In this document: piece by piece, positions 2,723 to 32,000 of the stretch
Position numbering within the stretch: position 1 is the first letter of the stretch
How the letters are laid out: every line of letters starts with the position of its first letter
Assembly: GCA_965224465.1 (NCBI GenBank)
Contig: OZ245049.1
Location: forward strand, 3,180,001 to 3,212,000
Direction: 5' to 3'
Source: Flavobacteriaceae bacterium
Lineage (GTDB): Bacteria > Bacteroidota > Bacteroidia > Flavobacteriales > Flavobacteriaceae
Length of the DNA: 32,000 nucleotides
Notes under the pieces: generated by a model
The model's input: only the letters and a program-made list of their open reading frames with translations
The model's database searches: none
Told to the model about the DNA's origin: nothing
Program-made: the position numbers and the translations under genes

Positions 2723-4441
2723 ATGAGTACTATAGATAGAAAAAAATACGCATCCATGTATGGGCCTACAACAGGAGATAAAGTGCGTTTAGGTGATAGT
2801 GAATTATTCGCCGAAGTAGAAAAAGATTTTACCGTATATGGTGAAGAAAATAAATTTGGTGGTGGTAAAACAGTAAGAGATGGAATGGCGCAATCTGCTA
2901 CACATACGAGAGATGAAGGTGTGTTGGATTTATTGATTACCAATGCTCTTATTATTGATTATTGGGGAATTGTAAAAGCAGATATTGGGGTAAAAGACGG
3001 TAAAATTATCGGAATTGGAAAAGCAGGAAATCCAAATACGATGGATGGTGTGACTCCAGGGATGAACATTGGTGCTTCTACAGAAGTTCTCGCTGCCGAA
3101 GGTAATATAATTACTGCAGGAGGATTGGATGCTCATGTTCACTTTATTTGTCCTCAATTAGTAGATACTGCTCTGTATAGTGGGATCACTACCATGATTG
3201 GTGGAGGTACTGGACCTAGTCACGGTACGTTGGCAACCACAGTTACTCCAGGTGCTTGGAATTTAGAAAAAATGTTCCAATCGTTAGACGAATTCCCGTT
3301 AAATTTCGGGTTGTTTGGGAAAGGGAACTCTTCTTCGGAAGCCGCATTAGTAGAGCAAGTAGAAGCAGGCGCCTTAGGCTTGAAATTACATGAAGATTGG
3401 GGGACCACTCCATCTGCAATTGATACTTGTTTAACGGTTGCTGATAAATACGATATTCAAGTTGCGATTCACTCAGATACGTTGAACGAAGCTGGATTTG
3501 TTGAAGACACCATTGCTGCAATCAATGGTAGAACAATACATACATTCCATACCGAAGGCGCAGGTGGAGGACATGCTCCTGATATTATTACAATTGCAGG
3601 TTTACCAAATATCTTGCCTTCTTCTACAAACCCAACAAGACCGTTTACTGTAAATACAGCGGATGAGCATTTAGATATGCTTATGGTTTGTCATCATTTA
3701 GATAAAAATGTAAAAGAAGATGTATCATTTGCAGATTCACGTATCCGCCCAGAAACTATTGCTGCAGAGGATATTTTACATGATAAAGGTGTATTCTCTA
3801 TGATGAGTTCTGATTCTCAAGCAATGGGTAGAGTTGGAGAAGTTGTATGTCGTACTTGGCAAACTGCAGATAAAATGAAACGTCAATTTGGTGCCTTAGA
3901 AGAAGACAAAGGTAACGATAATGACAACTTTAGAATTAAGAGATATATTGCTAAGTATACAATTAATCCTGCAATTTCTCACGGTGTTTCTAAACATGTT
4001 GGTTCTATAGAGGTTGGTAAAATGGCAGATATGGTTATGTGGAGACCAGATATGTTTGGTGCGAAACCCGAACTTATTGTTAAAGGTGGGGTTGTATTAG
4101 CCTCTAAAATGGGAGATGCAAATGCATCCATTCCAACTCCTCAGCCAGTAGTATATAAACCAATGTTCGGATACTTTGGACAATCAATGAAAAAATCGTC
4201 TGCTATATTTGTTTCTCAAGTGTCCTTAGATAAAGGGATAGTTCAGGGATATGGTTTAGGTAAAAACGTATTGGCTGTTGAAAACTGTAGAAATATCAGT
4301 AAAGCAGATATGGTTTTAAATGATGCAACTCCTAAGATTGAGGTAAATGCTCAAACGTATGAAGTAAAAGTAGATGGAGAAGTAATTACTTGTGAGCCTA
4401 TTGATATTATTCCAATGGCACAATTGTATTTTTTGTTTTAA
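2723..4441 (+). CDS. ureC: Urease alpha (catalytic) subunit
   Basis: 572 aa. [29 protein letters not shown] and [12 protein letters not shown] nickel-site motifs. Confidence 0.98.
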
Positions 4442-4530: not shown

Positions 4531-4564
4531 AATCCAAATACATTTCTAAATGACCGCTGTAGAT
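4531..4564 (+). repeat. Foldback repeat 5'-end fragment (degenerate) in the ureC-TBDR spacer
   Basis: AATCCAAATACATTTCTAAATGACCGCTGTAGA versus consensus ATACCAAATACATTTCCAAGTGACGGTTTAGA. Confidence 0.7.
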
Positions 4565-4572
4565 CATGTCTT

Positions 4573-4608
4573 ATACCAAATACATTTTCAAGTGACGGTT
4601 TAGGAAAG
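4573..4608 (+). repeat. Foldback repeat 5'-end fragment in the ureC-TBDR spacer
   Basis: ATACCAAATACATTTTCAAGTGACGGTTTAGGAAAG matches the first ~36 nt of the consensus. Confidence 0.85.
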
Positions 4609-4671
4609 TCCTGTAGCATTTTTATAAATATATCTATGAGCTTATTGTCAGCTGTAAAAGACAACAAGAGA

Positions 4672-6894
4672 ATGAAAAAATCACCCTATAAAATCACCTT
4701 ATTGCTGCTAATTGTCAGCCTGTCCAGTTTTTCACAAACTATTATTGGAACTATTACAAATTCCTATAATGTACCTATTGAAAACGTGTATGTATTAAAT
4801 CGGAACGCTAATACCCATATTCACACAAATTCTAAAGGAGTGTTTTCTTTAGAAAATGTGAAGGTAGGAGATTCGTTACAGTTGAGTCATATCAGTTATA
4901 AAACTATCATTGTTCCTGTAAGAGCTATTGATACACCATTTAATATTCAGCTGCGAGAACAATTTGTGGACTTGTCGGAAATTGTAATTCCAAAAAAATT
5001 GAATGCTTTAAATGTATTTGTCAATATAAATTTAAAAAACACTCCCGTTAATAACTCTCAGGATATCCTTAAAACAGTTCCTGGTTTGATTATAGGGCAA
5101 CATGCTGGAGGTGGGAAAAGTGAACAAATTTTCTTAAGAGGTTTTGATGTAGATCATGGAACTGATATACAGATAACTGTAGAAGGCATGCCTGTAAATA
5201 TAGTTTCTCATGCGCATGGTCAAGGATACGCTGATCTGCATTTTGTGATACCTGAAACTATTGATAAAATAGACTTTGATAAAGGGCCATACCATGCCAA
5301 TAAAGGGAATTTTGCTACTGCAGGATATATAGATTTTCAACTAAAAGAACAGATAGATCATAGTCAAGTAAAACTAGAAGGAGGTTCCTTTAATACCCAA
5401 CGAATTTCAGGATTATTTAACCTGCTGAATCAAGGGAATAAAAAAGCCTATATAGCGACGGAATATTTAATGACAGACGGACCTTTTAAATCTCCTCAAA
5501 ATTTTAATAGGATCAATATGATGGCGAGGTATACCGAGTTTTTAAATAGTGGAGGAAAAGTATCGTTTATAGCTTCTTATTTTTCTAGTGACTGGGATGC
5601 TTCTGGGCAAATACCAGAGAGAGTTGTACCAATTATAGGTCGTTTTGGTGCCATAGATGATACCGAAGGTGGGACTACCCATAGAACAAATATTATAGTT
5701 AAATACGATAAAAAATTAGAGGAGGATGCAATGGTGAAAAACAGTATGTACTATGTGAATTATGACTTTGAGCTGTTTTCAAATTTTACATTCTTTTTAA
5801 ACAATCCTATCCAAGGCGATCAAATCAAACAAAAGGAAAACAGAAAGATATTTGGTGTAAATAGCGTGTATAGTAAGCGCTTCGATTATGGTATTGATAA
5901 CGATGGTGTATTTATAAGTGGTGTTGGGTTTAGAAATGATAAAAGTATTGAGAACGAATTGTCTTATACAAAAAACAGAACCCTCACGGTAAAAACACTA
6001 AAACTAGGTGATATTGATGAAACTAATATGTATGCTTTTGTAGATAGCAGGTTTAATATCGGTAAGTGGACCGTAAATCCAGGATTGAGATTGGATTATT
6101 TTAAGTTTAATTATCACGATCATTTGAAAGTAGCATACAGTGTAGAGTCAGCGCAAAAATCTATTCTGAGCCCCAAGTTAAATTTCTTATTTAATTATTC
6201 TAACAACCTACAGTTGTTTTTAAAAACAGGGAAAGGTTTTCATTCAAATGATACCAGAGTTGTTGTACAGTCAGTTGGACATAAAACGTTGCCAGCTGCC
6301 TATGGAAGTGATATAGGTATGGTTTGGAAGCCAAGTCCAAAAGTAATTCTAAGCACTGCTTTTTGGTACTTGTTTTCTGAGCAAGAATTTGTTTACGTCG
6401 GGGACGAAGCTGTGGTGGAATCCATAGGTAATACACAAAGATTAGGTGTAGATCTTGGATGGATGTATTACCCCTTAGATTGGTTAAGTCTAAATGTAGA
6501 TCTTAACTACGCAAAGCCAAAAGCGATTGAAGAACCAAAAGGACAAGATTTTGTGCCATTGGCGCCTGATCTAACAGTTGCAGGAGGCATTAGGCTAAAT
6601 CATCCGTCTGGATTGTTTGGAGCAGCTAAATTCTTATTTGTAAAAGACAGACCCGCAAATGAAGATAATTCTATTGTAGCTAAGGGCTATTCTTTATTGG
6701 ATGTAAATATAGGTTACAGATGGAGTAAAATCACCTTGGGAATTGAGCTTAGAAATGTACTAGATACAACATGGAATGAAACCCAGTTTGCTACCGAATC
6801 AAGGTTGAAAAATGAAGTAGCACCCGTTACTGAAATTCACTTTACACCAGGGAATCCTTTTAATGTTAAAGGCTCAATTACGTATAGTTTTTAA
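4672..6894 (+). CDS. TonB-dependent outer-membrane receptor embedded in the urease operon
   Basis: The real start is taken at MKKSPYKITLLLLIVSLSSFSQ (signal peptide). This is followed by a CarboxypepD_reg-like domain, a plug (FLRGFDVDHGTD) and a beta-barrel ending in ...ITYSF. The 60 codons upstream in the ORF track (from 4492) are read-through of repeat fragments. Confidence 0.85.
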   Translation: MKKSPYKITLLLLIVSLSSFSQTIIGTITNSYNVPIENVYVLNRNANTHIHTNSKGVFSLENVKVGDSLQLSHISYKTIIVPVRAIDTPFNIQLREQFVDLSEIVIPKKLNALNVFVNINLKNTPVNNSQDILKTVPGLIIGQHAGGGKSEQIFLRGFDVDHGTDIQITVEGMPVNIVSHAHGQGYADLHFVIPETIDKIDFDKGPYHANKGNFATAGYIDFQLKEQIDHSQVKLEGGSFNTQRISGLFNLLNQGNKKAYIATEYLMTDGPFKSPQNFNRINMMARYTEFLNSGGKVSFIASYFSSDWDASGQIPERVVPIIGRFGAIDDTEGGTTHRTNIIVKYDKKLEEDAMVKNSMYYVNYDFELFSNFTFFLNNPIQGDQIKQKENRKIFGVNSVYSKRFDYGIDNDGVFISGVGFRNDKSIENELSYTKNRTLTVKTLKLGDIDETNMYAFVDSRFNIGKWTVNPGLRLDYFKFNYHDHLKVAYSVESAQKSILSPKLNFLFNYSNNLQLFLKTGKGFHSNDTRVVVQSVGHKTLPAAYGSDIGMVWKPSPKVILSTAFWYLFSEQEFVYVGDEAVVESIGNTQRLGVDLGWMYYPLDWLSLNVDLNYAKPKAIEEPKGQDFVPLAPDLTVAGGIRLNHPSGLFGAAKFLFVKDRPANEDNSIVAKGYSLLDVNIGYRWSKITLGIELRNVLDTTWNETQFATESRLKNEVAPVTEIHFTPGNPFNVKGSITYSF

Positions 6895-6924
6895 TGTGTA
6901 ATTCGTTTAAAACACAATACTTAT

Positions 6925-7437
6925 ATGAAGATTATCTCAAAAATAATAGGGAATTTAAAAAACAGTGACTTTAGTTCAAAAGAGATAGATTTCTTTGATA
7001 TAGAGTGGTATGAGACAACGCGAAAAGTGCTTAGAAAAGAAACCAGAAATGGAGAAGAGATCGCATTGAGGATATTGAAAGAAAAGTTTAGAATTAAACA
7101 CCTCGATATTTTATTTGAAGACGATACTTCTATGATTGTAGCCAGTGTCTTGCCAGCAGAAGCTGTAATTGTACAACCAGATTCTATGAGAGAAATGGGT
7201 ACTATTTGTTACGAAATAGGAAATCAGCACATTCCTATTTTTATAGAAAAAAACGAAATAATTATACCATTCGAAGATCCTATATACAATTTATTAAATA
7301 GCGCTGGTTATAGGCCTTTAAAAGGGAAAAGAATATTTGAAAACATGCTAAAAGCAGTGCCGGATCATTCAAAGACTACGGATACTTGTATTGATATGGA
7401 TCGCTTATTTAGCAAAGTATTAGCCGATAAAAACTAA
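6925..7437 (+). CDS. ureE: Urease accessory protein UreE (no His-rich C-terminal tail)
   Basis: 170 aa. YEIGNQHIP motif. Positioned before ureF. Confidence 0.85.
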   Translation: MKIISKIIGNLKNSDFSSKEIDFFDIEWYETTRKVLRKETRNGEEIALRILKEKFRIKHLDILFEDDTSMIVASVLPAEAVIVQPDSMREMGTICYEIGNQHIPIFIEKNEIIIPFEDPIYNLLNSAGYRPLKGKRIFENMLKAVPDHSKTTDTCIDMDRLFSKVLADKN

Positions 7438-7441
7438 AATT

Positions 7442-8131
7442 ATGAAAATTAATGCACTCTTGAGTTTGTTACATGTAGCCGATCCTAATTTACCTATTGG
7501 TGGATATTCTCACTCCAATGGTTTGGAAACGTATGTTCAAAAAGAAATTGTAAATGATCAAAAAAGTACCTTGAGGTTTTTAATAAATATGATGAGTAAC
7601 AATGTATTGCATAACGATGCTTCTTATGTGAAACTGGTTTATGAAGCGTTGGAATCCAATAATTTTAAAGAGGTAATCTCTTTAGATTTGGAGTGTACAG
7701 CCTTAAAAAGCCCTAAGGAAATACGAGAAGGAAGCCATAAGTTAGGTGCGCGCTTATTTAAAATTTTTAAAAACAAAAATGAACACCCTATGTTAAAAGT
7801 TTTAGGGGAATATGTTTTTAAAAAGAAAGAAGTGGGGAATTATGCTATCGTGTATAGTGTGGTGTGTTTTGTAAGTGGGATTTCCTTAAAAGAAGCCTTG
7901 GCAGCATTTTATTTTTCTTCTGCTGCTGGGATGATTACTAATGCCGTTAAATTAGTGCCTCTTGGGCAATTACAAGGGCAAGAGATCTTATTTGAAATTC
8001 AGGGAAAGATAGATGTTTGGGTAGAAAAAACCATTGCGTTGGACAGAAGTCTTGTTGGGATTTCTAATGTAGGTTTTGATTTGCGTTCCATGCAACACGA
8101 GCGCTTGTATTCAAGGCTGTACATGAGTTAA
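7442..8131 (+). CDS. ureF: Urease accessory protein UreF
   Basis: 229 aa. LLHVADPNLPIGGYSHSNGLETYV N-terminal UreF motif. Confidence 0.9.
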   Translation: MKINALLSLLHVADPNLPIGGYSHSNGLETYVQKEIVNDQKSTLRFLINMMSNNVLHNDASYVKLVYEALESNNFKEVISLDLECTALKSPKEIREGSHKLGARLFKIFKNKNEHPMLKVLGEYVFKKKEVGNYAIVYSVVCFVSGISLKEALAAFYFSSAAGMITNAVKLVPLGQLQGQEILFEIQGKIDVWVEKTIALDRSLVGISNVGFDLRSMQHERLYSRLYMS

Positions 8132-8140
8132 GGAGTCCAG

Positions 8141-8176
8141 ATTATTTATATCGGTCATTTTGGATTGCATTGGTAT
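8141..8176 (+). repeat. Foldback repeat 3'-end fragment in the ureF-ureG spacer
   Basis: ATTATTTATATCGGTCATTTTGGATTGCATTGGTAT matches the last ~36 nt of the consensus. Confidence 0.85.
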
Positions 8177-8221
8177 TAAATGGATGTAGAGGTAAAAATT
8201 ATATAATTAAAAGAATAGAGC

Positions 8222-8854
8222 ATGAGAAAATATGTTAAAATAGGAATTTCAGGGCCTGTAGGTGCTGGGAAAACAGCGTTGATAGAAACCCTGTCTAGAA
8301 AAATGGCTAAAAACTATTATATAGGTGTCATAACCAATGATATTTATACCCGAGAAGATCAAATATTCTTACAAAAAAATAGTCTTTTAGATGCGGATAG
8401 AATTATTGGTGTAGAAACGGGAGGTTGTCCTCATACCGCTATTAGAGAGGATGCGAGTATGAACCTAGAAGCGGTGGATGAGTTAGCAGAAAGACATCCT
8501 GATATGGCACTTTTATTTATTGAGAGTGGTGGTGATAACCTGGCAGTAACCTTTAGCCCAGAACTGGTAGATTTAACCATTTTTGTTACAGATACTGCCG
8601 CAGGAGAAGACATTCCTAGAAAAGGTGGCCCTGGGAACACTCGCTCTGATTTATTATTGATTAATAAATTTGATTTGGCACCCTATGTTGGTGTTAACTT
8701 AGATAATATGAGGCGAGATGCTCTAAAAATGCGAAAAGGAAAACCATTTGTTTTCACCAATTTAAAAACGGGTGAAGGTGTAGATGCAGTTATTGGTTGG
8801 ATTCGAAAATATGCACTCTTAGAAGATATTAAAGAACCAGCACTTATAAAATAA
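8222..8854 (+). CDS. ureG: Urease accessory GTPase UreG
   Basis: 210 aa. [13 protein letters not shown]-loop, [20 protein letters not shown] and NKFDL motifs. Confidence 0.96.
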
Positions 8855-8945
8855 TTTGTAACAATTAGAAAGACCTTTTTGTGACCTATACTGAACAGTT
8901 AGAAACAGGGGGCTTGATACTTGTTTTTAGAATACTTTTTTGAGG

Positions 8946-9008
8946 CATATGATACATCCATTTCAACCATTTTATTCGGCTAGAGTTTGGTTGAATGGGT
9001 GTCATATG
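8946..9008 (+). other. Long imperfect hairpin (~21 bp stem, 18-nt loop) in the 268-nt ureG-ureD spacer
   Basis: CATATGATACATCCATTTCAACCA - loop - TGGTTGAATGGGTGTCATATG. No U-run follows. Confidence 0.7.
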
Positions 9009-9122
9009 TAACTTCTTATTAAAGCTTTTGATTAAAATAATATAGTATGACAGATGAGACAACCATGTATTTTTATAAGTAGGATGTTTCATTTGCTCGA
9101 ATTGATAAAATAGAATATACAG

Positions 9123-9932
9123 ATGAAAAATTTATGTGAATTGAAAATATCAACAGGAATTGTTGATGGTTTTCATAGGTTGATGAATCCTTATTTTACA
9201 GTACCATTTGGTTTGCTGCGTTTTGATGCTAGAACTCCTCATGATCCTTGGTTGCGTTATATGATTAGAAGTTCATCCCCCGGAATATTGGCGGGAGACG
9301 TTTACGACATGATAATAAACGTAGATAAAAACACGACTCTTGGCTTAGAAACACAAGCGTATCAACGAATTTATGAAATGAACGAAGGAGGCAAAGCAGT
9401 GCAAAAAATGACAGTGACAGTTCAAGATAATGGGTTCTTACATTATATTCCGCACCCTTTAGTCCCTCATAAAGACTCCGACTATGCTGCCAGTAATACA
9501 ATTCATTTAAAAAGTTCTTCACAACTAATTTGGGGGGAAGTAATTACTTGTGGAAGAAAACTGTATGGTGAGGTATTTGATTTTAAAAAATTTATAAACC
9601 ACACGGAGATCTTTGTAGATAAACAACTTATTTTTAAAGATAAAATACTGTTTGAACCAAAAAAAACGGATGTTTCTGGTTTAGGTCAGTTAGAAGGGTA
9701 CACCCATCAGGCAACACTGTTTTCTTATAGCGAAAATCTTAATTCGGAGTTGATTTATGATTTTTTATTAGCAAGTATTAAAGAGGAAGAAGAGGTTGAA
9801 TATGGTATGAGTACTACTTTACGTGGAGGTGTTATTATTCGGATAGTTGGCAATAGTGGAGAGCAATTATATCATTTAATTAAACAGATAGAAAATCGAA
9901 TTTTGGAGGTTTCTATTCCTGAATTAGTATAA
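9123..9932 (+). CDS. ureD: Urease accessory protein UreD/UreH
   Basis: 269 aa. SSPGILAGDVYD...TQAYQRIY pattern, and its position after ureG. Confidence 0.8.
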   Translation: MKNLCELKISTGIVDGFHRLMNPYFTVPFGLLRFDARTPHDPWLRYMIRSSSPGILAGDVYDMIINVDKNTTLGLETQAYQRIYEMNEGGKAVQKMTVTVQDNGFLHYIPHPLVPHKDSDYAASNTIHLKSSSQLIWGEVITCGRKLYGEVFDFKKFINHTEIFVDKQLIFKDKILFEPKKTDVSGLGQLEGYTHQATLFSYSENLNSELIYDFLLASIKEEEEVEYGMSTTLRGGVIIRIVGNSGEQLYHLIKQIENRILEVSIPELV

Positions 9933-9937
9933 TTATT

Positions 9938-10642
9938 ATGGAGTATTCTTTTCCTTTTATTGCGGGTGTCTTAGCGGCTGTTTTACATGTTATTTCTGGT
10001 CCAGATCACCTCGCTGCGGTTGCGCCATTTGCTATAGAAAGAGTAAAAAAGGCATGGAAAGTAGGTCTTTTATGGGGGCTAGGGCATTTGTCTGGAATGC
10101 TTTTGATAGGGCTGTTGTTTTTAGTTTTTAAAGACGTGATTCCAATTGAGAAAATTTCTAAGCATAGCGAAAAACTTGTTGGTTTTGTGCTTATTTTATT
10201 AGGTGTTTGGATTTTGACTAAAATCTTTATATCTAATAAAAAAAGGCATAAGCATGTTCATGTACATGTAAAAGGTGCCCCAGCAATTCATAAGCATGAG
10301 CACTCTCATTATGCGAATGATGTACATATCCATGATCATAAAGAAATTAAAAAAGGCAATGTGACTACTTTTTTTGTGGGTCTTGTTCACGGGTTGGCAG
10401 GGATTGCACATTTTTTAATTTTCCTGCCAGTTATTGGATTTGTATCCAAAATAGATTCCATAAAATACATCCTTGGTTTTGGTGTGGGAACCCTTTTAGC
10501 TATGACCTCTTTTGCAATTGTGATGGGGCGTATTGCTGCGTATTCAAAAAAAGATCACAATCATTCTGTTTTTCAAGGGATTCGTATTGCAAGTGCAGTT
10601 TTTGCGTTTTTGTTCGGGATATACTGGGTCTTGGTTAATTAA
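9938..10642 (+). CDS. Putative nickel permease (HupE/UreJ or UreH type) with a histidine-rich loop
   Basis: 234 aa, about 6 TM segments. TM1 motif HVISGPDHLAAV resembles the H-x-x-x-G-x-DH signature of secondary Ni transporters. The central loop KKRHKHVHVHVKGAPAIHKHEHSHYANDVHIHDHKE is rich in histidine. Confidence 0.7.
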   Translation: MEYSFPFIAGVLAAVLHVISGPDHLAAVAPFAIERVKKAWKVGLLWGLGHLSGMLLIGLLFLVFKDVIPIEKISKHSEKLVGFVLILLGVWILTKIFISNKKRHKHVHVHVKGAPAIHKHEHSHYANDVHIHDHKEIKKGNVTTFFVGLVHGLAGIAHFLIFLPVIGFVSKIDSIKYILGFGVGTLLAMTSFAIVMGRIAAYSKKDHNHSVFQGIRIASAVFAFLFGIYWVLVN

Positions 10643-10728
10643 CAAAGCTCTTGAGGAAAATAAGTTAAAAATAAATAGTTAGAATCAAGAGTGCCTTCAG
10701 GTACTATTGATTGACAGTTACGTATTAT

Positions 10729-10736
10729 TAAATTTG
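10729..10736 (+). promoter_or_regulatory. -7 box TAAATTTG upstream of the porin gene
   Basis: Exact TAnnTTTG 12 nt before the ATG at 10749, which would give a very short leader. Confidence 0.3.
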
Positions 10737-10748
10737 AAATTCACACTT

Positions 10749-11933
10749 ATGAAAAAACAATTTTTAACAGTATTAGTTGTAATATTTGCAACAGTACAAT
10801 TTGGTTATGGCCAAGATAGGAAAGAAGAAAAATCAGTTGCAGTTAACTGGGGAGGATACGTGAAAGCGGATTTTATCTATGATACCCGCCATACTTCAGA
10901 TGCGAGAGAAGGAAATTTTTTAGTATATCCAGCACCAGAAGTTTTTGTAGATGGAAGGGATGTCAATGACGAAGCTAGTTTTAATGGATATGCGATTGAG
11001 TCTCGGTTGAATGCATCTGTTAAGGGGCCTGATTTTTTCGGAATGAAAACTTTTGGATTCATTGAAGGTCATTTTTTCGGAAACCGTGGAGATGATATTA
11101 ATGGTTTCAGTTTAAGGCATGCTTTTTTAAAGTTATCGAATGATAAAGTGGATATTTTAATTGGTCAATATTGGCATCCGACCTTTGTTACAAATGTATC
11201 TCCTGGTACTTATGGTTTCAATGCAGGTGTTCCATATCAGGCATTTAATAGAAGTCCACAAATTCGTGTCTCTACAAAAGGAAATGTGAGGTTTATTGGA
11301 GTTATTTTGACAGAAAGAGATTTTCAAACAGCGGGTAGAGCGAGTGTAAGGTATGCTGCTTTGCCAACTTTACATGCGCAGCTACAGGTTGGTAGTGATT
11401 TAGGTTTCTTAGGTGGTTTTGGGATAAATGTAAAAACTGTTGATACCAAACCCGGATTTAATGAAAACCTAACAAGTATGTCTGTTTTAGCTTATGCAAA
11501 GGCACAATTAAGCGATAATATTACATGGAAATTACAGGGACTCTATGGAGGGAATATGACAGAGCTTATTCAAGCAGGTGGTTATGGATTAGATATGAAC
11601 AATGATCCAATTGCTAATAAAACACTATCGGTTTGGACGGAGTTTAGTGGGGATTTTACAAACACCGTAGAATGGGGTCTGTTTGCTGGCTATAGTGTGG
11701 ATAATGGCTATGGAGAGCAAGTTGTGGTCGTCCAAAATTCGTCCGTAGAGAGTTCGTATAGAATTTCGCCTAGAATTGGATGGAAATCTGGAAAAGTAAG
11801 GTTAGGGATAGAATTAGATTATTCGGAAGCTCAATATGGGAAGGTAAATCCTACCACAGGAGATTTTGATACTACAGGTATAAAGAGTGTTGGGAACTTT
11901 AGAACAGCTTTGTCTGCGAAGTACAGCTTTTAA
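10749..11933 (+). CDS. Outer-membrane beta-barrel porin-like protein
   Basis: Start taken at MKKQFLTVLVVIFATVQFGYGQ (signal peptide; the track start at 10707 adds 14 unlikely residues). Alternating beta-strand pattern with a C-terminal ...SAKYSF. Confidence 0.7.
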   Translation: MKKQFLTVLVVIFATVQFGYGQDRKEEKSVAVNWGGYVKADFIYDTRHTSDAREGNFLVYPAPEVFVDGRDVNDEASFNGYAIESRLNASVKGPDFFGMKTFGFIEGHFFGNRGDDINGFSLRHAFLKLSNDKVDILIGQYWHPTFVTNVSPGTYGFNAGVPYQAFNRSPQIRVSTKGNVRFIGVILTERDFQTAGRASVRYAALPTLHAQLQVGSDLGFLGGFGINVKTVDTKPGFNENLTSMSVLAYAKAQLSDNITWKLQGLYGGNMTELIQAGGYGLDMNNDPIANKTLSVWTEFSGDFTNTVEWGLFAGYSVDNGYGEQVVVVQNSSVESSYRISPRIGWKSGKVRLGIELDYSEAQYGKVNPTTGDFDTTGIKSVGNFRTALSAKYSF

Positions 11934-11964
11934 TATTTAGAGAGCTTTGTAAATTTATTGAAAA

Positions 11965-11988
11965 GGAATCGGAAGATTCCTTTTTTTT
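11965..11988 (+). terminator. Intrinsic terminator after the porin gene
   Basis: GGAATC-GGAA-GATTCC followed by T8. Confidence 0.7.
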
Positions 11989-12067
11989 ATGCCTTAATTT
12001 TAAAGGTATTCCTAAAGGACTGTTTAGGAATCAATACCGAATCGAGTATAGACTTGGTTTTTGTCTC

Positions 12068-12120
12068 GTTTAGATGGAGCATATTAGAGTAGCCGTAGCT
12101 GCCGTTCTGGTTTTAAGAAC
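12068..12120 (+). repeat. Degenerate central fragment of the foldback repeat
   Basis: TTTAGATGGAGC...GTAGCCGTAGCTGCCGTTCTGGTTTTAAGAAC resembles TTTTAGCTAGGCG...ATAGTGTAGCTATCGTTCTGTTTTTCAACAAC. Confidence 0.45.
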
Positions 12121-12190
12121 AAATAAAGGGAAGACTTGAATAAATGTATAGTAATAATAGGGAACTACTTTATGGATGCGTCTTATTCTT

Positions 12191-12350
12191 ATACCAAATA
12201 CATTTCCAAGAGACGGTTTAGAAATGGAATTATTTTTTATTTTAGCTAGGCGAAAAAAAGAAGGATAGTGTAGCTATCGTTCTGTTTTTCAACAACGCTA
12301 GAAGGTAAAATAAACTATTTATATCGGTTATTTTGGATTGTAATTGGTAT
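12191..12350 (+). repeat. ~160-nt foldback repeat, copy A (full)
   Basis: ATACCAAATACATTTCCAAGAGACGG...TTTTGGATTGTAATTGGTAT. Differs from copy B at only about 7 positions. Confidence 0.95.
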
Positions 12351-12351
12351 C

Positions 12352-12509
12352 ATACCAACTACATTTCCAAGAGACGGTTTAGAAATGGAATTATTTTTTG
12401 TTTTAGCTAGGCAAAAAAAAGAAGGATAGTGTAGCTATCGTTCTGTTTTTAAACAACGCTAGAAGGTAAAATAAACTATTTATATCGGTTGTTTTGGATT
12501 GTGTGGTAT
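12352..12509 (+). repeat. ~160-nt foldback repeat, copy B (full), 1 nt after copy A
   Basis: ATACCAACTACATTTCCAAGAGACGG...TTTTGGATTGTGTGGTAT. Confidence 0.95.
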
Positions 12510-12724
12510 TATTTATCAATACAGACTAATTTATTAAGAGGTGTCTTTTACATGTCAAAACCACAAGGACTCATTTTGCTTAAACACATTTCAACTTGTC
12601 ATCGCTGTCTATAGTTATGGTTTTGTTTTATAGACAAAAAAAACCAAAAGGATTGGTTCAATCTAATGTGTAGCGTTTTTTTAAGTGCTAAAGGTTTTGG
12701 TTGCGTTTGAAATAGGGATAGGAA

Positions 12725-12757
12725 ATACCAATTGTGGAATGTTTTGTAATTGGGATA
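12725..12757 (+). repeat. Miniature version: 5'-terminus-like and 3'-terminus-like sequences with almost no interior
   Basis: ATACCAATTGTGGAATGTTTTGTAATTGGGATA. ATACCAATT.. matches the 5' end and TTTTG.TAATTGG.AT matches the 3' end. Confidence 0.5.
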
Positions 12758-12775
12758 AGGAAGTCTATAGAAAAA

Positions 12776-12814
12776 GAGTCTGTTTTAAAAGCACGGTGCT
12801 TTTAAAACAGACTC
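12776..12814 (-). terminator. Long perfect hairpin downstream of the MFS transporter stop
   Basis: GAGTCTGTTTTAAAAGCAC / GTGCTTTTAAAACAGACTC, with T5 following on the minus strand and an A-run on the other side. Confidence 0.6.
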
Positions 12815-12856
12815 TCGAGAAAAAAAGTGTAAATTATTTTAGGAATAAATAAATTA

Positions 12857-14164: not shown

Positions 14165-14238
14165 AAATAATTATTTTAAGTTAATAAGAGATTTTTCAGG
14201 TTTTTAAAGCAGAATTAAATTTTTCACGACGCTATAGT

Positions 14239-14246
14239 CAAAGCTA
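14239..14246 (-). promoter_or_regulatory. -7 box TAGCTTTG (minus strand) upstream of the MFS transporter
   Basis: Exact TAnnTTTG 75 nt before the ATG at 14164. Confidence 0.3.
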
Positions 14247-14410
14247 TAGAGCCGTAAAAAATTTGTTTTAGGCTTATTTTCAATTATCTATGAACAAAGG
14301 AACATACAATATGAGCAGCTCTTAAAAGTGAAGTAATAAATGATGATTTTACCGTGGAAATGTAACTTTTAAGGATCAAAAATGAATCAAGAGACACTGT
14401 TTATTGATGC

Positions 14411-14470
14411 TTATTGATGGGGATCTGTTTTGAGATTGTAATTTAAACGCTGTTAAAGGTGGTGTTTTGT
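14411..14470 (+). repeat. ~60-bp direct repeat X1 flanking copy C (contains a 3'-terminus-like TTTTGAGATTGTAATT)
   Basis: TTATTGATGGGGATCTGTTTTGAGATTGTAATTTAAACGCTGTTAAAGGTGGTGTTTTGT recurs at 14632-14692. Confidence 0.8.
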
Positions 14471-14471
14471 T

Positions 14472-14632
14472 ATCCCAATTAAATTTCCAAGTGAAGGTTT
14501 AGAAATGGAATTATTTTTTGTTTTAGTTAGGTGGAAAATGGAAGGAGAACCTTAGCTATTGTTCTGTTTTTTAACAACACTAGAACGTAAAACAACCTAT
14601 TTATATCGGTCATTTTGAATTGTAATTGGTAT
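14472..14632 (+). repeat. ~160-nt foldback repeat, copy C (full, apical stem degraded)
   Basis: ATCCCAATTAAATTTCCAAGTGAAGG...TTTTGAATTGTAATTGGTAT. Confidence 0.9.
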
Positions 14633-14692
14633 TATTGATGGGCAGCTGTTTTTAGATTGTAATTTAAACACTACTGAAGGAGGTATTTTGTT
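14632..14692 (+). repeat. ~60-bp direct repeat X2 flanking copy C
   Basis: TTATTGATGGGCAGCTGTTTTTAGATTGTAATTTAAACACTACTGAAGGAGGTATTTTGTT. Confidence 0.8.
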
Positions 14693-14760
14693 TAGGCTAA
14701 AAATTAGATGGATTCTCATAGCTGCCCTTCTGTTTTTTAACGACTAAGTCGATTCGTTAG
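14693..14760 (+). repeat. Degenerate central/3' fragment of the foldback repeat following X2
   Basis: TAGGCTAAAAATTAGATGGATTCTCATAGCTGCCCTTCTGTTTTTTAACGACTAAGTCG parallels TAGCTAGGCGAAAA..GGATAG..TAGCTATCGTTCTGTTTTTCAACAACGCTAGAACG. Confidence 0.55.
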
Positions 14761-14920
14761 AATTGTATTTCTCTCTCTGAAATGCTGCTCCCGATAGAAA
14801 ATTAATTTTTGGGAAGTATAAACGTGTACTCTTAAAATGAGTTTGTTGATTTAAGAGTGTCGTTTTTTCCTAAAGTTAGGGAAAGGAATGCACGTTCTGA
14901 TATAGATGAGTTTTCAAGTA

Positions 14921-15080
14921 ATACCAACTATATTTCCAAGTGACGATTTAGAAATGGAAATATTTTTTGTTTTAGCTAGGCGAAAACTGGAAGGATAGCT
15001 CCGCTATCGTTCTGTTTTTCAATAACGCTAGAACGTAAAACAACCTATTTATATCGGTTATTTTGCATTGTAATTAGTCT
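14921..15080 (+). repeat. ~160-nt foldback repeat, copy D (full)
   Basis: ATACCAACTATATTTCCAAGTGACGA...TTTTGCATTGTAATTAGTCT. Confidence 0.9.
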
Positions 15081-15126
15081 AACTGGATAGGAAAGAAATG
15101 CCGGTTGGTTTGAATGCAAGCATCTT

Positions 15127-15157
15127 CTGTTTTATCTAGGAGGAAAAAACGGAGAAG
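15127..15157 (+). repeat. Degenerate central fragment of the foldback repeat
   Basis: CTGTTTTATCTAGGAGGAAAAAACGGAGAAG versus TTGTTTTAGCTAGGCGAAAAAAAGAAGGATAG. Confidence 0.5.
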
Positions 15158-15213
15158 TATTGATGATTGTGCAGTGTTTGGAGCTGCTATAATCCAGTAA
15201 GATGGTACGGTTT

Positions 15214-17010
15214 TTATTTGTCTCCTCTACTTTCCAGTTCCTTTTGGAATTCTTCCATTACAGGTTTTACAGTGCTTTCTGGGATGTCTGATACACGTAT
15301 GTACATTAATCCATCTACAGCATTGTTAAATTTAGGGTCTACATTAAAAGCGACCAATCGAGCGTTTTGTTTTACGTATTTTTTTATCAATACAGGAATT
15401 CTAAGATTCCCAGGTTCAATTTCGTCTATAAATTTATCGAATTTTTGCATGTCTGCATTGGCTTCGTCGAAAACAAAATCTTTATCAGCATCTTTTAACT
15501 TTACTTTAAATTCTTTTTTAGGCTGAATGTACTGTGCCACATAAGGATCGTAGTAATGTGATTTCATAAATTCAATCATCAGTGATTTTGAAAACTCCGA
15601 AAATTGGTTGCTGATACTTACCCCTCCAATTAAGTATTTGTACTCAGGATAACGTAGGGTGGTATGAACAATTCCCTTCCACAACAAGAAAAGAGGCATT
15701 GGTTTTTGTTGGTACTCTTTGATGATAAAAGCACGCCCCATTTCTATAGAGTCCTCCATCATTCCAAATAATTCTGGTTCGAATTTGAATAAAGTATGAA
15801 TGTAAAATCCTTTAATTCCGTACTTTTTGAAAATAGATTTCCCGAGCCCCATACGGTAGGCACCTGCCAATTTATTAGCTTCTTTATCCCATAAAAATAG
15901 GTGGTGATAGTAGGTGTCAAATTCATCTAAATCGATGGCTAAATTTGTGCCTTCTCCTACCTCTCTAAAGGTTATTTCTCTAAGTCGTCCTATTTCTTGT
16001 AATAATTTAGGAATGGCATCACTAGGAGCGAAAAAAACCTCGTAATTTTTACTTTGTAAAAGTCTACCTTCATTTTCCCTCAAGGTGTCTACCTCTTTTA
16101 TGATTGCGCCTATATCGCCTTGAGCTACTATTTTTTTAGGTGATCGAGGTATTTTTAAAGAGGAAACATTTAGAGAGGTTGATTTCTCTTTTTCGAACGG
16201 ATTTGATAATAAATATGTTTTAGTTCGGATAAAATCACCTAAATCTTTGATGTTTTTGTATTCGTCTAATTGTTTTACAGAAATAGCTTTTCCGATTCGT
16301 ACTTTAACTACCCTTTCTTTTTGAGAAAGTAATTCTGAAGGTAATTTAGCGGTTCTTAGTTTGTCGCTTATTTTTGAAAGTATATAAAAATATCGGCTGT
16401 TTTTTGCGTGAAAATAAATAGGGATTACAGGTACTCTCGCTTTTTTAATTAATTTGATAGCTCCTTCTGCCCATGGTTTGTCTATGATTAGTTTTCCGTC
16501 TTTGTATGTAGAAACTTCTCCTGCAGGAAAAATCCCTAATGGATATCCGTCTTTTAGATGTTGTAACGCTTCTTTAATCCCCGTCAAACTAGACTTCGTG
16601 TCTTTGTGGTTTTCAAAAGGGTTTACAGCCAGAACATAGGGTTTTAAAGGCTTGATGCGGTGCAGTAGAAAATTGGCGATAATTTTATAATCGGTACGTC
16701 TTTCTATTAAAAGTTTTAACAAGAGTACACCATCAATACCACCTAAAGGGTGGTTTGAGACGGTTATAAAAGGTCCATTTTTCGGGATTCTTTTAAGGTC
16801 GCTTTCAGGAACTTCAAACTTAATTTGCAAATCGTTTAAAAGAGACGTGAAAAATTCGATTCCTTTTAAATGTTTGTGTGTATTGTAAATTTTATTAATG
16901 GTTGAAATTCTCAATATTTTTAAAAGAGACCAACCTATAAAAGTACCTAAAAAACCGTACTTTTCTACCTTGATCGCTTTGGCAACTTCTTTAGCTGTTA
17001 CTAAACTCAT
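15214..17010 (-). CDS. Bifunctional acyltransferase, OlsF-like (N-terminal PlsC-type O-acyltransferase plus C-terminal GNAT/OlsB-like N-acyltransferase); probable aminolipid synthase
   Basis: 598 aa. VSNHPLGGIDG and GIFPAGEVS acyltransferase motifs lie in the N-terminal half, with a GNAT-like C-terminal half. The architecture matches that described for OlsF of Flavobacterium and Serratia. Confidence 0.6.
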   Translation of the reverse strand: MSLVTAKEVAKAIKVEKYGFLGTFIGWSLLKILRISTINKIYNTHKHLKGIEFFTSLLNDLQIKFEVPESDLKRIPKNGPFITVSNHPLGGIDGVLLLKLLIERRTDYKIIANFLLHRIKPLKPYVLAVNPFENHKDTKSSLTGIKEALQHLKDGYPLGIFPAGEVSTYKDGKLIIDKPWAEGAIKLIKKARVPVIPIYFHAKNSRYFYILSKISDKLRTAKLPSELLSQKERVVKVRIGKAISVKQLDEYKNIKDLGDFIRTKTYLLSNPFEKEKSTSLNVSSLKIPRSPKKIVAQGDIGAIIKEVDTLRENEGRLLQSKNYEVFFAPSDAIPKLLQEIGRLREITFREVGEGTNLAIDLDEFDTYYHHLFLWDKEANKLAGAYRMGLGKSIFKKYGIKGFYIHTLFKFEPELFGMMEDSIEMGRAFIIKEYQQKPMPLFLLWKGIVHTTLRYPEYKYLIGGVSISNQFSEFSKSLMIEFMKSHYYDPYVAQYIQPKKEFKVKLKDADKDFVFDEANADMQKFDKFIDEIEPGNLRIPVLIKKYVKQNARLVAFNVDPKFNNAVDGLMYIRVSDIPESTVKPVMEEFQKELESRGDK

Positions 17011-30179: not shown

Positions 30180-30629
30180 ATGTCAATAAAACATCTAAAA
30201 CCAGTAAAAGGAAGCGTAGTAGAATCAAAAGAACGTAAGATCTTAGTAGCAGATTATATGATTACAAATATAGTGACGTTTTCACCAGATCAATTAATTG
30301 TTAATGTTATGGATATATTGATAAAAAATAATATTTCAGGAGGACCTGTTGTGAATGAGAAAAACGAATTGCTCGGTATTGTTTCTGAGAGGGATTGTAT
30401 GAAACAAATTAGTGAAAGTCGATATTTCAACATGCCTATTCCTGATGCTATTGTAGACAATCACATGGCAAAAGATGTAGATACGATGGATAAAAACATG
30501 ACCATTTTTGATGCCGCTAATATTTTTTATTCTTCTGGAAGGAAACGGTTTCCAATTGTGGAAAATGGTAAATTGATAGGTCAAATAAGTAGAAGAGATA
30601 TTGTAAAAGCAGCATTAGATATGATGTAA
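30180..30629 (+). CDS. CBS-domain pair protein
   Basis: 149 aa. Two CBS repeats (MITNIVTFSPDQ...GGPVVN...LLGIVSERD and MAKDVDTM...RFPIVENGKLIGQISRRD). Confidence 0.85.
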   Translation: MSIKHLKPVKGSVVESKERKILVADYMITNIVTFSPDQLIVNVMDILIKNNISGGPVVNEKNELLGIVSERDCMKQISESRYFNMPIPDAIVDNHMAKDVDTMDKNMTIFDAANIFYSSGRKRFPIVENGKLIGQISRRDIVKAALDMM

Positions 30630-30787
30630 TATCAACTACATTTCCAAGTGACGGTTTAGAAATCGAATTATTTTTTGTTTTAGCTAGGTGAGAAATCTTA
30701 GGATAGTTAGCCTATCGTTCTATTTTTAACAACGTTAGAACGTAAAATAAACTATTTATATCGGTCATTTTGGGTTGTATTTGGTGT
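30629..30787 (+). repeat. ~160-nt foldback repeat, copy E (full); first base is the last base of the CBS gene stop codon
   Basis: ATATCAACTACATTTCCAAGTGACGG...TTTTGGGTTGTATTTGGTGT. Confidence 0.9.
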
Positions 30788-30816
30788 AATAAGAGTTTTT
30801 ATTGGTTTTATCCAAT

Positions 30817-30849
30817 AAAAAAAACCGTTCAAAGATGAACGGTTTTTTT
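30817..30849. terminator. Bidirectional terminator hairpin (A8 - ACCGTTCA AAGA TGAACGGT - T7); second copy at 31284-31316
   Basis: 8-bp GC-containing stem flanked by an A-run and a T-run. It could end both the CBS/repeat-E transcript (+) and the candidate sRNA (-). Confidence 0.7.
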
Positions 30850-30912
30850 ATCTCTTACCGAAGTAAGTTAGATTGAAACTTTCCCCAAATTTTCAATTTC
30901 TCTAATAAGTAT
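30817..30912 (-). ncRNA. Candidate ~96-nt small RNA, copy 1 (promoter, two hairpins, intrinsic terminator)
   Basis: Minus strand reads TATCTTTG(-7 box)-TACC-AUACUUAUUAGAGAAAUUGAAAAUUUGGGGAAAGUUUCAAUCUAACUUACUUCGGUAAGAGAUAAAAAAACCGUUCAUCUUUGAACGGUUUUUUUU. Hairpin 1 is UUAG/AUUGAAA..UUUCAAU/CUAA. Hairpin 2 is CUUAC-UUCG-GUAAG. The terminator is ACCGUUCA-UCUU-UGAACGGU followed by a U-run. No ATG in the transcript. The 5' end is inferred. Confidence 0.5.
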
Positions 30913-30916
30913 GGTA

Positions 30917-30924
30917 CAAAGATA
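30917..30924 (-). promoter_or_regulatory. Bacteroidota sigma-A -7 box TATCTTTG for candidate sRNA copy 1
   Basis: Exact TAnnTTTG on the minus strand. A conserved CCGAACAA lies 19 nt upstream in both copies. Confidence 0.45.
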
Positions 30925-31076
30925 TAGATGTTTTAGAATAGCATTGTTCGGGAAAACACATGATTAATTGTGGTTTTGCATAAAACAGAAGTTTTACTTT
31001 TTTTATCCCACTTGAAGGGTTTAATCCTATGAGGATAGGTCTTTAAAAACGAATTAGTTACCGTTTTCTTGGGGCA

Positions 31077-31104
31077 AATTTTTGAGGGATTATGTGGTTG
31101 GTAT
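31077..31104 (+). repeat. Foldback repeat 3'-end fragment abutting copy F with a 1-nt gap
   Basis: AATTTTTGAGGGATTATGTGGTTGGTAT versus consensus CATTTTGGATTGTAATTGGTAT (copy B ends GGATTGTGTGGTAT). Confidence 0.65.
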
Positions 31105-31105
31105 T

Positions 31106-31266
31106 ATACCAAATACATTCCCAAGTGATGGTTTAGAAATGGAATTATTTTTTGTTTTAGTTGTCGAAATGGATGGATAGCCTTGCTATTGGTATATTTT
31201 TTAACAATGCTAGAACGTGAAATGAACTATTTATATCGATAATTTGGGATTGGAATTACTTGGTTA
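31106..31266 (+). repeat. ~160-nt foldback repeat, copy F (full, most diverged)
   Basis: ATACCAAATACATTCCCAAGTGATGG...AATTTGGGATTGGAATTACTTGGTTA. Confidence 0.85.
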
Positions 31267-31283
31267 AAATTATTTTTTTCAAC

Positions 31284-31379
31284 AAAAAAAACCGTTCAAA
31301 GATGAACGGTTTTTTTATCTCTTACCGAAGTAAGTTAGATTGAAACTTTCCCCAAATTTTCAATTTCTCTAATAAGTAT
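31284..31379 (-). ncRNA. Candidate ~96-nt small RNA, copy 2 (identical to copy 1)
   Basis: 31284-31391 is 108/108 identical to 30817-30924, while the flanks are diverged. Confidence 0.5.
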
Positions 31380-31383
31380 GGTA

Positions 31384-31391
31384 CAAAGATA
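31384..31391 (-). promoter_or_regulatory. -7 box TATCTTTG for candidate sRNA copy 2
   Basis: Exact TAnnTTTG on the minus strand. Confidence 0.45.
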
Positions 31392-31664
31392 GGAATGTTA
31401 TAGGATGTATTTGTTCGGTAAAGCGCAGGTAAGACTGTGGGTTTTCGTATTGGATTGAATTTTTTTTTCTGTGCGTTTGTAAAGTTGAGATCTATGTATG
31501 CTTTACACTCATTTGATTTGTTAAATCTGTATTATTATATTGAATTATTTTTTGCAAGATAAAAGCTAAAATAGCTAGCATAGCTTTTTTATGGAAAGTT
31601 GGTTTTGAAAATTGGTTGTGAAAAGGAACCCCTATAATGCGACATTATAAAGTCAAATGAGGCT

Positions 31665-31809
31665 AATACCAACTATATTTCCATATGACGGTCTATAAAT
31701 TAAATTGTTTTTTGTTTTAGCTAGGCGAAAAATTTAAAGATAGCCTTCGCTATCGTTCTATTTTTTAACAACGTTAGAACGTAAAACAAACTATTTATAT
31801 CGGTGATTT
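31665..31809 (+). repeat. ~160-nt foldback repeat, copy G (3' end removed by IS66 insertion)
   Basis: ATACCAACTATATTTCCATATGACGG...CTATTTATATCGGTGATTT, then the IS66 IRL. Confidence 0.85.
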
Positions 31810-32000
31810 GTAAGCGTACGGAGAACTACATCTTGTAAGAAGTTAAAAATAATCTAATTTTTGCATCTAAACAAAAACGAAAATATAAATGTTAGGATTA
31901 GGTACAGAACACACGTATTATTATCACTTATCTGCAGTTGATATGCGAAAAGGATTTAATGGATTAAGTGGATTAGTTAGTGAGCACATGGAACAAGAGC
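31810..32000 (+). mobile_element. IS66-family insertion sequence, left end (IRL starting GTAAGCG), inserted into foldback repeat copy G
   Basis: The repeat consensus breaks off at 31809 and the sequence continues GTAAGCGTACGGAG. IS66-family inverted repeats characteristically start 5'-GTAA. tnpB starts 79 nt later. Confidence 0.65.
31889..32000 (+). CDS. tnpB: IS66-family accessory protein TnpB (Orf2), N-terminal 37 codons, runs off the window
   Basis: MLGLGTEHTYYYHLSAVDMRKGFNGLSGLVSEHMEQE contains the IS66 Orf2 N-terminal motif (.DMR.GF.GL...V). Confidence 0.8.
   Translation, partial: MLGLGTEHTYYYHLSAVDMRKGFNGLSGLVSEHMEQE

Follow-up and report, generated by a model that had tools for sequence, protein, structure and literature searches.

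Foldback repeats flanked by TWA target-site duplications in a Flavobacteriaceae genome: a probable miniature inverted-repeat transposable element family

We analysed a 32,000-nt stretch of DNA (the window; contig OZ245049.1, positions 3,180,001 to 3,212,000) from a low-GC Flavobacteriaceae genome, that of a marine flavobacterium; the contig is 5,241,564 bp long. The window holds a family of foldback repeats of about 160 nt, to which a first-pass annotation made from the DNA letters had drawn attention. These repeats are best explained as miniature inverted-repeat transposable elements, or MITEs, moved in trans by a DDE transposase, and we put the probability of this reading at about three in four. 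Terminal inverted repeats, target-site duplications, the lack of an open reading frame (ORF) and presence or absence in relatives together indicate a MITE. The family is undescribed and is so far confined to one Flavobacteriaceae lineage.

A profile hidden Markov model (HMM) built from the copies and run over the window with nhmmer found seven copies of about 160 nt (Table 1), each with an E value of 1e-40 to 1e-49 and all on the + strand. The only minus-strand matches were weak ones at these same loci, which the palindrome produces. The seven intervals first annotated were all recovered, as was the single orientation of every scorable copy in the window. Two 29-nt core patterns each matched six copies, against 0.00 expected in shuffled sequences. 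We delimit the element as TACCAA...TTGGTA, about 158 nt long (range 158-162 nt), with terminal inverted repeats of the form TACCAAnTACA...TGTAnTTGGTA and the terminal sequences TACCAAnTACATTTCC...GGAAATGTAnTTGGTA. Pairwise identity among copies is 76-89%, the tandem pair A/B being an exception at 96%; copy F is the most divergent (76-80%). The suggestion that A/B and E/F are local duplications therefore holds for A/B, but E and F, at only 78% identity, are not a recent pair. Fewer fragments are supported than the 'at least 9' first counted, namely two unambiguous ones (4574-4606 and 8143-8175) and about five marginal ones. Stop codons occur in all six frames of the element and no ORF is kept across copies, in line with the earlier remark that a conserved ORF is lacking. 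The window copies are old and mostly decaying.

Copy A forms a single long rod (-50.4 kcal/mol, z = -7.0). In an alignment of nine copies, 60 pairs are formed and 92.8% of their cells are paired; sliding the partner column lowers this to 39-48%. In helix 1 (22 pairs) the value is 90.8%. Each copy gives an imperfect rod of about 60 bp; the first-pass annotation had put it at about 75 bp. Rfam 15 gave no match at the gathering threshold on any copy, and the description as a genuine foldback repeat family without an assigned name stands. We note that the block CTATTTATATCG in the 3' arm (alignment columns 127-138, for example window 12315-12326) is invariant in nine copies and in the 8143 remnant. 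Its 5'-arm partner varies, and twelve invariant columns are only borderline unusual (estimated p ~0.05); the block could be a protein-binding site.

The element is flanked by 3-nt direct repeats, TWA, that the first-pass annotation had not noted and that are identical in five of the six complete elements or dimers and carry one mismatch in the sixth, a copy from another genome (L001, below). The flanks preserved on one side only, those of copies G and F and of the remnants at 4574 and 8175, also fit. The middle base of the flank matches directly in 6/6 cases (p ~0.016). An extension of the palindrome would pair TTA on the left with TAA on the right; the direct identity of the middle base in all six therefore argues that the flanks are not such an extension. 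The W base derives from the target and not from the element, since the TAA-flanked copies D and E (83% identity) do not form a sequence subfamily. TWA repeats of this kind are the classic trace that a DDE transposase leaves when it makes a staggered cut of 3 nt at T-W-A.

Only two further full copies were found when 185,579 species-representative genomes were searched with a 23-nt degenerate core. Both are in metagenome-assembled genomes (MAGs) of Flavobacteriaceae, NORP150 (locus L001) and NORP129 (locus L002), at loci that are not homologous to the window. The family is thus dispersed in at least three related genomes. The profile of a spurious small ORF in the 3' arm recovered one predicted 46-aa protein of the source genome, P0140; because no window copy encodes it, at least one more copy must exist elsewhere in the source genome. 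Ten metagenome and 39 viral pattern matches proved on re-scoring with nhmmer to be chance matches to the short pattern and were discarded. Plasmid and phage collections gave no match by blastn, and a literature search by sequence strings returned only an irrelevant spider barcode.

A comparison with relatives, which the first-pass annotation had proposed, showed that the site of copy E is filled in the window and empty in a relative. The North Pond MAG NORP129, which shares housekeeping proteins with the window at more than 90% identity, has the same block from the acyltransferase gene to the CBS-domain gene, with no copy within about 21 kb. In NORP129 the hairpin AAAAAAACCGTTCAAAGATGAACGGTTTTTTT follows the CBS stop codon by about 65 nt; in the window the stop codon and this same hairpin have copy E between them. 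Similarly, the ureF-ureG spacer is 90 nt long and holds a right-end remnant in the window, against about 30 nt and no remnant in two relatives (L058 and L061). A locus of Gelidibacter salicanalis that holds the closest MFS homologue (82%) and a urease cluster contains no copy. The first-pass annotation had considered the uniform orientation not to be expected of a passive MITE, and had named clean target-site duplications among the findings that would make the family an ordinary one. Such duplications are what we observe, and with the TWA repeats and the empty site for E in a related MAG the doubt is not borne out.

The features found are those by which MITEs are recognised: small size (158-162 nt, where about 50-500 bp is usual) without coding capacity, inverted termini, TWA duplications, dispersed copies, and filled and empty sites. 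Correia elements (Neisseria), Nezha (cyanobacteria), Chunjie (Geobacter) and QMITEs (Coxiella) are likewise non-coding elements of 100-250 bp with terminal inverted repeats and short flanking direct repeats. The present element has no detectable sequence similarity to them, and its palindrome runs through the whole element and not through the ends only. The Correia element makes a TA duplication. The 3-nt TWA duplication seen here differs from the 9 bp of Chunjie (PMC3184786). Like the present element, prokaryotic MITEs are AT-rich, mostly intergenic and predicted to form very stable hairpins; truncated members occur beside full copies, and a site filled in one genome may be empty in a relative (PMC3184786; PMC10969869). 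ERIC/IRU, an enterobacterial element of about 127 bp that is itself listed as a MITE (PMC3184786), shares the imperfect palindrome over the whole element and the location in intergenic and 3' untranslated regions (3' UTRs). It belongs to a different phylum, differs in sequence and is shorter, and its RNA-level effects have been put to experimental test.

The duplication also bears on the enzyme. Insertion with a 3-bp duplication at TWA is what marks 'Tourist-like' elements of the IS5/PIF-Harbinger group, and is seen here. PIF/Harbinger transposons and Tourist MITEs make a 5'-TWA-3' 3-bp duplication in AT-rich targets, and duplications of 3 bp are likewise made by the related IS5 family of bacteria (PMC4482050). 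PIF/Harbinger elements are, however, eukaryotic, and the IS5 duplication is given as ANT and not TWA (PMC4482050). The footprint thus resembles that of an IS5/PIF-Harbinger-like enzyme and may point to one, a likeness drawn from the duplication. By duplication length alone an IS30- or IS3-family enzyme is also possible. Enzymes of these families make duplications of 2-3 bp (IS30) or 3-5 bp (IS3).

We propose that a DDE-type transposase encoded elsewhere would bind the inverted termini of about 25 nt and insert the element at T-W-A with a 3-nt staggered cut, whose repair would duplicate TWA on both sides. Favoured targets would be TAA stop codons and AT-rich spacers between genes, which would account for the copies that lie directly after genes and for their accumulation in gene-free spacers. 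A further insertion, into a TWA next to a resident copy, would give head-to-tail dimers exactly 3 nt apart (A-TCA-B and x-TTA-F). The same dimer architecture would also arise from the IR-IR (inverted repeat-inverted repeat) junction intermediates of IS30- and IS3-family enzymes. Islands formed in this way would gather nested debris, local duplications (the D6 and D8 repeats described below) and other mobile DNA, and old copies serve in their turn as landing pads, as copy G has done for an IS66-family element.

No transposase related to the element was found in the window, as the first-pass annotation had also remarked; the only mobile-element gene is an IS66-type one that begins at 31889. This ORF is Orf2/TnpB_IS66-like (PF05717, E 2e-5) with no preceding Orf1, and its protein is cut by the end of the window. 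An inverted repeat that starts GTAAGCG at 31810 marks the left end of the insertion sequence. IS66 elements make 8-bp duplications. As the partner of the repeats IS66 was rejected, on its different terminal repeat and the length of its duplication.

Could the copies have spread by local segmental or tandem duplication and recombination only, the flanking trinucleotides being coincidental? The 96% identity of the A/B tandem pair would fit, as would the D6 copies that adjoin both E and F, the D8 repeats that bracket C, and the uniform orientation, which such a process predicts. Apart from A/B, however, copies are no closer to their neighbours than to those of other genomes (76-89%), and apart from D6 and D8 their borders are unrelated, each copy having its own matched TWA. 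Copies at non-homologous loci in two other genomes and isolated end remnants inside the urease operon are equally hard to reconcile with this explanation, which we consider very unlikely.

Several points weigh against the MITE reading and are taken together here. The flank statistics rest on the six complete flank pairs that could be scored. The empty site for E is located to a diverged spacer of about 60 nt, not to the nucleotide. An autonomous element with the same termini was found neither in the window nor in the plasmid or phage collections. Uniform orientation is not predicted for a DDE-mobilised MITE, yet all eight scorable loci (A/B, C, D, E, F, G, 4574 and 8143) are on the + strand. 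For about seven to eight loci in this one 32-kb window the two-sided p is about 0.01-0.02; with E and F counted as one event, seven loci give ~0.016. The + strand also folds more stably than the minus strand in 8/8 full copies, by 10-22 kcal/mol in seven of them (A, -50.4 against -32.8 kcal/mol; F, -43.3 against -20.9 kcal/mol), because the consensus holds six G-U pairs and no A-C pairs. Finally, double compensatory changes number 5 in nine sequences against 1.3 in shuffles, a value reached in 1/500 of these, and some constraint on the hairpin is to that extent not excluded.

Orientation is the one oddity, the other features being nothing unusual for bacterial MITEs. It does not follow transcription, as copies C and D are between two minus-strand genes and A/B between convergent genes. 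It does follow GC skew in the window and at L001. Skew at third codon positions (GC3 skew) on the + strand of the window is +0.21 for + genes and +0.26 for minus genes, and being positive for both indicates that the + strand is the replication leading strand throughout. The copy at L002 is on the C-rich strand (GC3 skew -0.43 for + genes and -0.12 for minus genes), so that one of the two outside loci contradicts a strict replication-coupled rule. We treat the bias as weak, since the window was picked out for looking odd; it is unexplained, and gives no evidence of a different mechanism.

A skew-linked orientation would be expected if the palindrome were moved as single-stranded DNA at the replication fork by an HUH enzyme (IS200/IS605 or RAYT-like), which would lock its direction. 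REP/BIME elements (RAYT) and IS200/IS605 derivatives are likewise palindromic intergenic repeats in clustered arrays for which an orientation bias is expected. All window copies lie on the strand with G-rich third codon positions in + and minus genes alike, the lagging-strand template; this strand forms the more stable hairpin, and L001 is oriented the same way relative to skew. The 'peel and paste' route does not, however, produce matched, variable TWA direct repeats, a constant 5' tetranucleotide is lacking, L002 has the opposite orientation, and there is no Y1 transposase in the window. REPs also differ in their length (20-40 nt against 158 nt) and in having no target-site duplication, and one copy here goes against the skew rule. 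An element of the IS200/IS605 or REP/RAYT type was therefore rejected on flanks, termini and the L002 orientation, and we hold this explanation to be highly improbable.

Imperfect palindromes that stand in one orientation and bracket genes also recall the recombination sites of a cassette system, such as integron attC sites. The element is of attC-like length, its copies share one direction, and copies bracket the MFS transporter gene. Its ends, ATACCAAn... and ...AATTGGTAT, do not fit the core sites RYYYAAC and GTTRRRY, no integrase is encoded in the window, dimers occur, some copies lie in spacers without cassettes, and the flanks show target-site duplications. The attC reading was rejected on termini and flanks; we give it next to no credence.

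A function as a + strand RNA is also conceivable, for the element itself or for the family once domesticated. As a long hairpin in 3' UTRs or intergenic transcripts it might serve to stabilise or process mRNA, or the copies might be a family of small RNA genes. Such a role would be compatible with a MITE origin, and ERIC and REP elements have been reported as mRNA hairpins of this kind. Beyond the fold asymmetry and the compensatory changes given above, derived pair states show 18 G-U against 7 A-C. In five of six regions the gene directly upstream has the + strand as its sense strand, and E sits between a stop codon and its terminator, where co-transcription is expected. Against this, paired columns are no more conserved than unpaired ones (0.915 and 0.902 in nine sequences), pairing is broken in 29/51 derived pair states, and the RNAalifold covariation term of the nine-copy alignment is positive (+1.35). 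The 18:7 ratio is near that from mutation bias: under the strong leading-strand GC3 skew (+0.21 to +0.26), C-to-T changes would exceed G-to-A changes on the + strand and leave G-U rather than A-C mismatches at roughly the observed ratio. C and D, set between minus-strand genes, do not fit either. Scans of the islands for sigma-70 promoters and terminators stayed at shuffle expectation, and no tRNA was found there. The Rfam search that the first-pass annotation had proposed was run on the copies and islands without a family match; at E<=10 the islands gave only below-threshold matches to unrelated families (miRNAs, snoRNAs and enterobacterial sRNAs), none of which recurred across copies. We conclude that the data do not call for an RNA role, and consider such a role possible but unlikely.

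A stronger form of the MITE reading would be a bacterial Tourist-like MITE that is strand-biased across the genome, either because its hairpin is kept in 3' UTRs or intergenic RNA as a structure with an influence on mRNA fate or because insertion is coupled to the fork. We regard this as distinctly unlikely; if true, such an element would be more than a passive parasite. TWA duplications are otherwise typical of the eukaryotic PIF/Harbinger elements. For the MITE family itself, a family model would clean the intergenic annotation of the source genome and its relatives. Insertion at TWA, including TAA stop codons and the ureF-ureG spacer, would allow long hairpins to enter 3' UTRs and polycistronic mRNAs. 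The islands mark plastic spots of the chromosome, as seen from a synteny breakpoint against a related MAG and from the IS66 insertion.

Table 1 Copies, remnants and associated features of the repeat family. The element column gives the delimitation TACCAA...TTGGTA
Feature	Span	Strand	Element	Flanks (left/right)	First-pass interval	Remarks
Second, weaker remnant	4534-4563	ambiguous				marginal; near the left-end remnant
Left-end remnant	4571..4606	+		TTA/		model positions 1-34; ureC-TonB receptor spacer
Right-end remnant	8143..8178	+		/TTA		model positions 126-160; ureF-ureG spacer
Degenerate central fragment	12046..12120	+				marginal
A-B head-to-tail dimer	12189..12511	+	A 12192-12349; B 12353-12508	TTA/TTA; TCA between copies	A 12191-12350; B 12352-12509	
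Copy C	14470..14634	+	14473-14631	TTA/TTA	14472-14632	
Degenerate central fragment	14686..14744	+				marginal
Copy D	14919..15082	+	14922-15079	TAA/TAA	14921-15080	
Degenerate fragment	15096..15203	+				marginal
Copy E	30627..30789	+	30630-30786	TAA/TAA	30629-30787	the CBS-domain gene (30180-30629) has the left TAA as its stop codon
Degenerate copy x	31042..31103	+		/TTA		internally deleted; weak score; end ...GTGGTTGGTA; one TTA joins x to F
Copy F	31104..31264	+	start 31107	TTA/	31106-31266	left TTA common to x and F; 3' end rearranged
Copy G	31664..31809	+	31667-31809	TAA/	31665-31809	ends at about model position 146 at the IS66-family insertion
Left end of IS66-family insertion sequence	31810..32000	+				inverted repeat starts GTAAGCG at 31810; inserted in copy G
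L001 (NORP150)				CAA/TAA		
L002 (NORP129)				TTA/TTA		

The ORF map has three gene-free islands (11934-12856, 14165-15213 and 30630-31888), which total 3231 nt or about 10% of the window and agree with those first annotated. The copies and their debris had been said to fill them; recognisable family sequence in fact makes up about 44% of the islands (about 1.4 kb), and the remainder consists of terminators, promoter regions and the two other local repeats, D6 and D8. The islands hold only ORFs of 37-55 aa, with the exception of a 119-aa ORF (15167-15526) that runs from the second island antisense into the acyltransferase gene.

D6 is a repeat of 177 nt, 86% identical between its two units, at 30806-30982 after E and 31273-31449 after F. 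It begins with the bidirectional terminator hairpin AAAAAAACCGTTCAAAGATGAACGGTTTTTTT, conserved after the CBS gene in NORP129, and also holds a perfect CTTAC-TTCG-GTAAG hairpin. A TAtcTTTG box (Bacteroidetes -7-like) is present on its minus strand, upstream of the terminator by about 100 nt. D6 could be a small RNA gene; its Rfam matches are weak and driven by the terminator. D8 is a 61-nt direct repeat, 85% identical, that brackets copy C (14411-14471 and 14632-14692). The second unit begins exactly at the right TTA of C and is followed by the 5'-deleted degenerate copy at 14686-14744, a layout that suggests tandem duplication of a unit made up of D8 and the element.

The window opens with a urease cluster with genes for a TonB-dependent receptor, ureE, ureF, ureG, ureD and a DsbD_2 protein. 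A 408-aa ORF (10707-11933) without a Pfam match, a putative porin, is followed by a minus-strand OFA-family MFS transporter, whose closest named relative is the 82% identical protein of Gelidibacter salicanalis, the acyltransferase, housekeeping genes, the CBS-domain gene and the start of the IS66-family element. To the left of the acyltransferase the gene order of NORP129 differs. A glycosyltransferase gene lies 82 nt away there, and the C/D island, the MFS gene, the urease cluster and the putative porin are all missing; the C/D island is therefore at a synteny breakpoint and is possibly the edge of an acquired urease island.

The TonB-dependent receptor gene stands between ureC and ureE (window 4669-10642), and its closest homologues are only about 61% identical. 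In the relatives L058 and L061 the genes from the TonB receptor through ureE, ureF, ureG and ureD to DsbD_2 form one block with no ureABC upstream. The urease cluster of the window has the look of two modules joined together, and MITE remnants lie where they meet (4534-4606). A 3.6-kb composite transposon reaching from the 4574 to the 8175 remnant, and carrying the TonB receptor, ureE and ureF, was considered and rejected, as these genes belong to one conserved block in relatives. The conservation of this block also places the right remnant inside an ancestral operon spacer.

The only Rfam match at gathering level in the window is 5_ureB_sRNA (79 bits, 2871-3170, minus strand), antisense in the urease alpha-subunit gene (2723-4441). 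Conservation of the coding sequence is its most likely cause, rather than an antisense RNA of the Helicobacter type. Downstream of the MFS transporter gene there is a very long perfect hairpin of 20 pairs followed by a T-run (12774-12816, minus strand), probably the terminator of that gene; it stands outside the repeat family.

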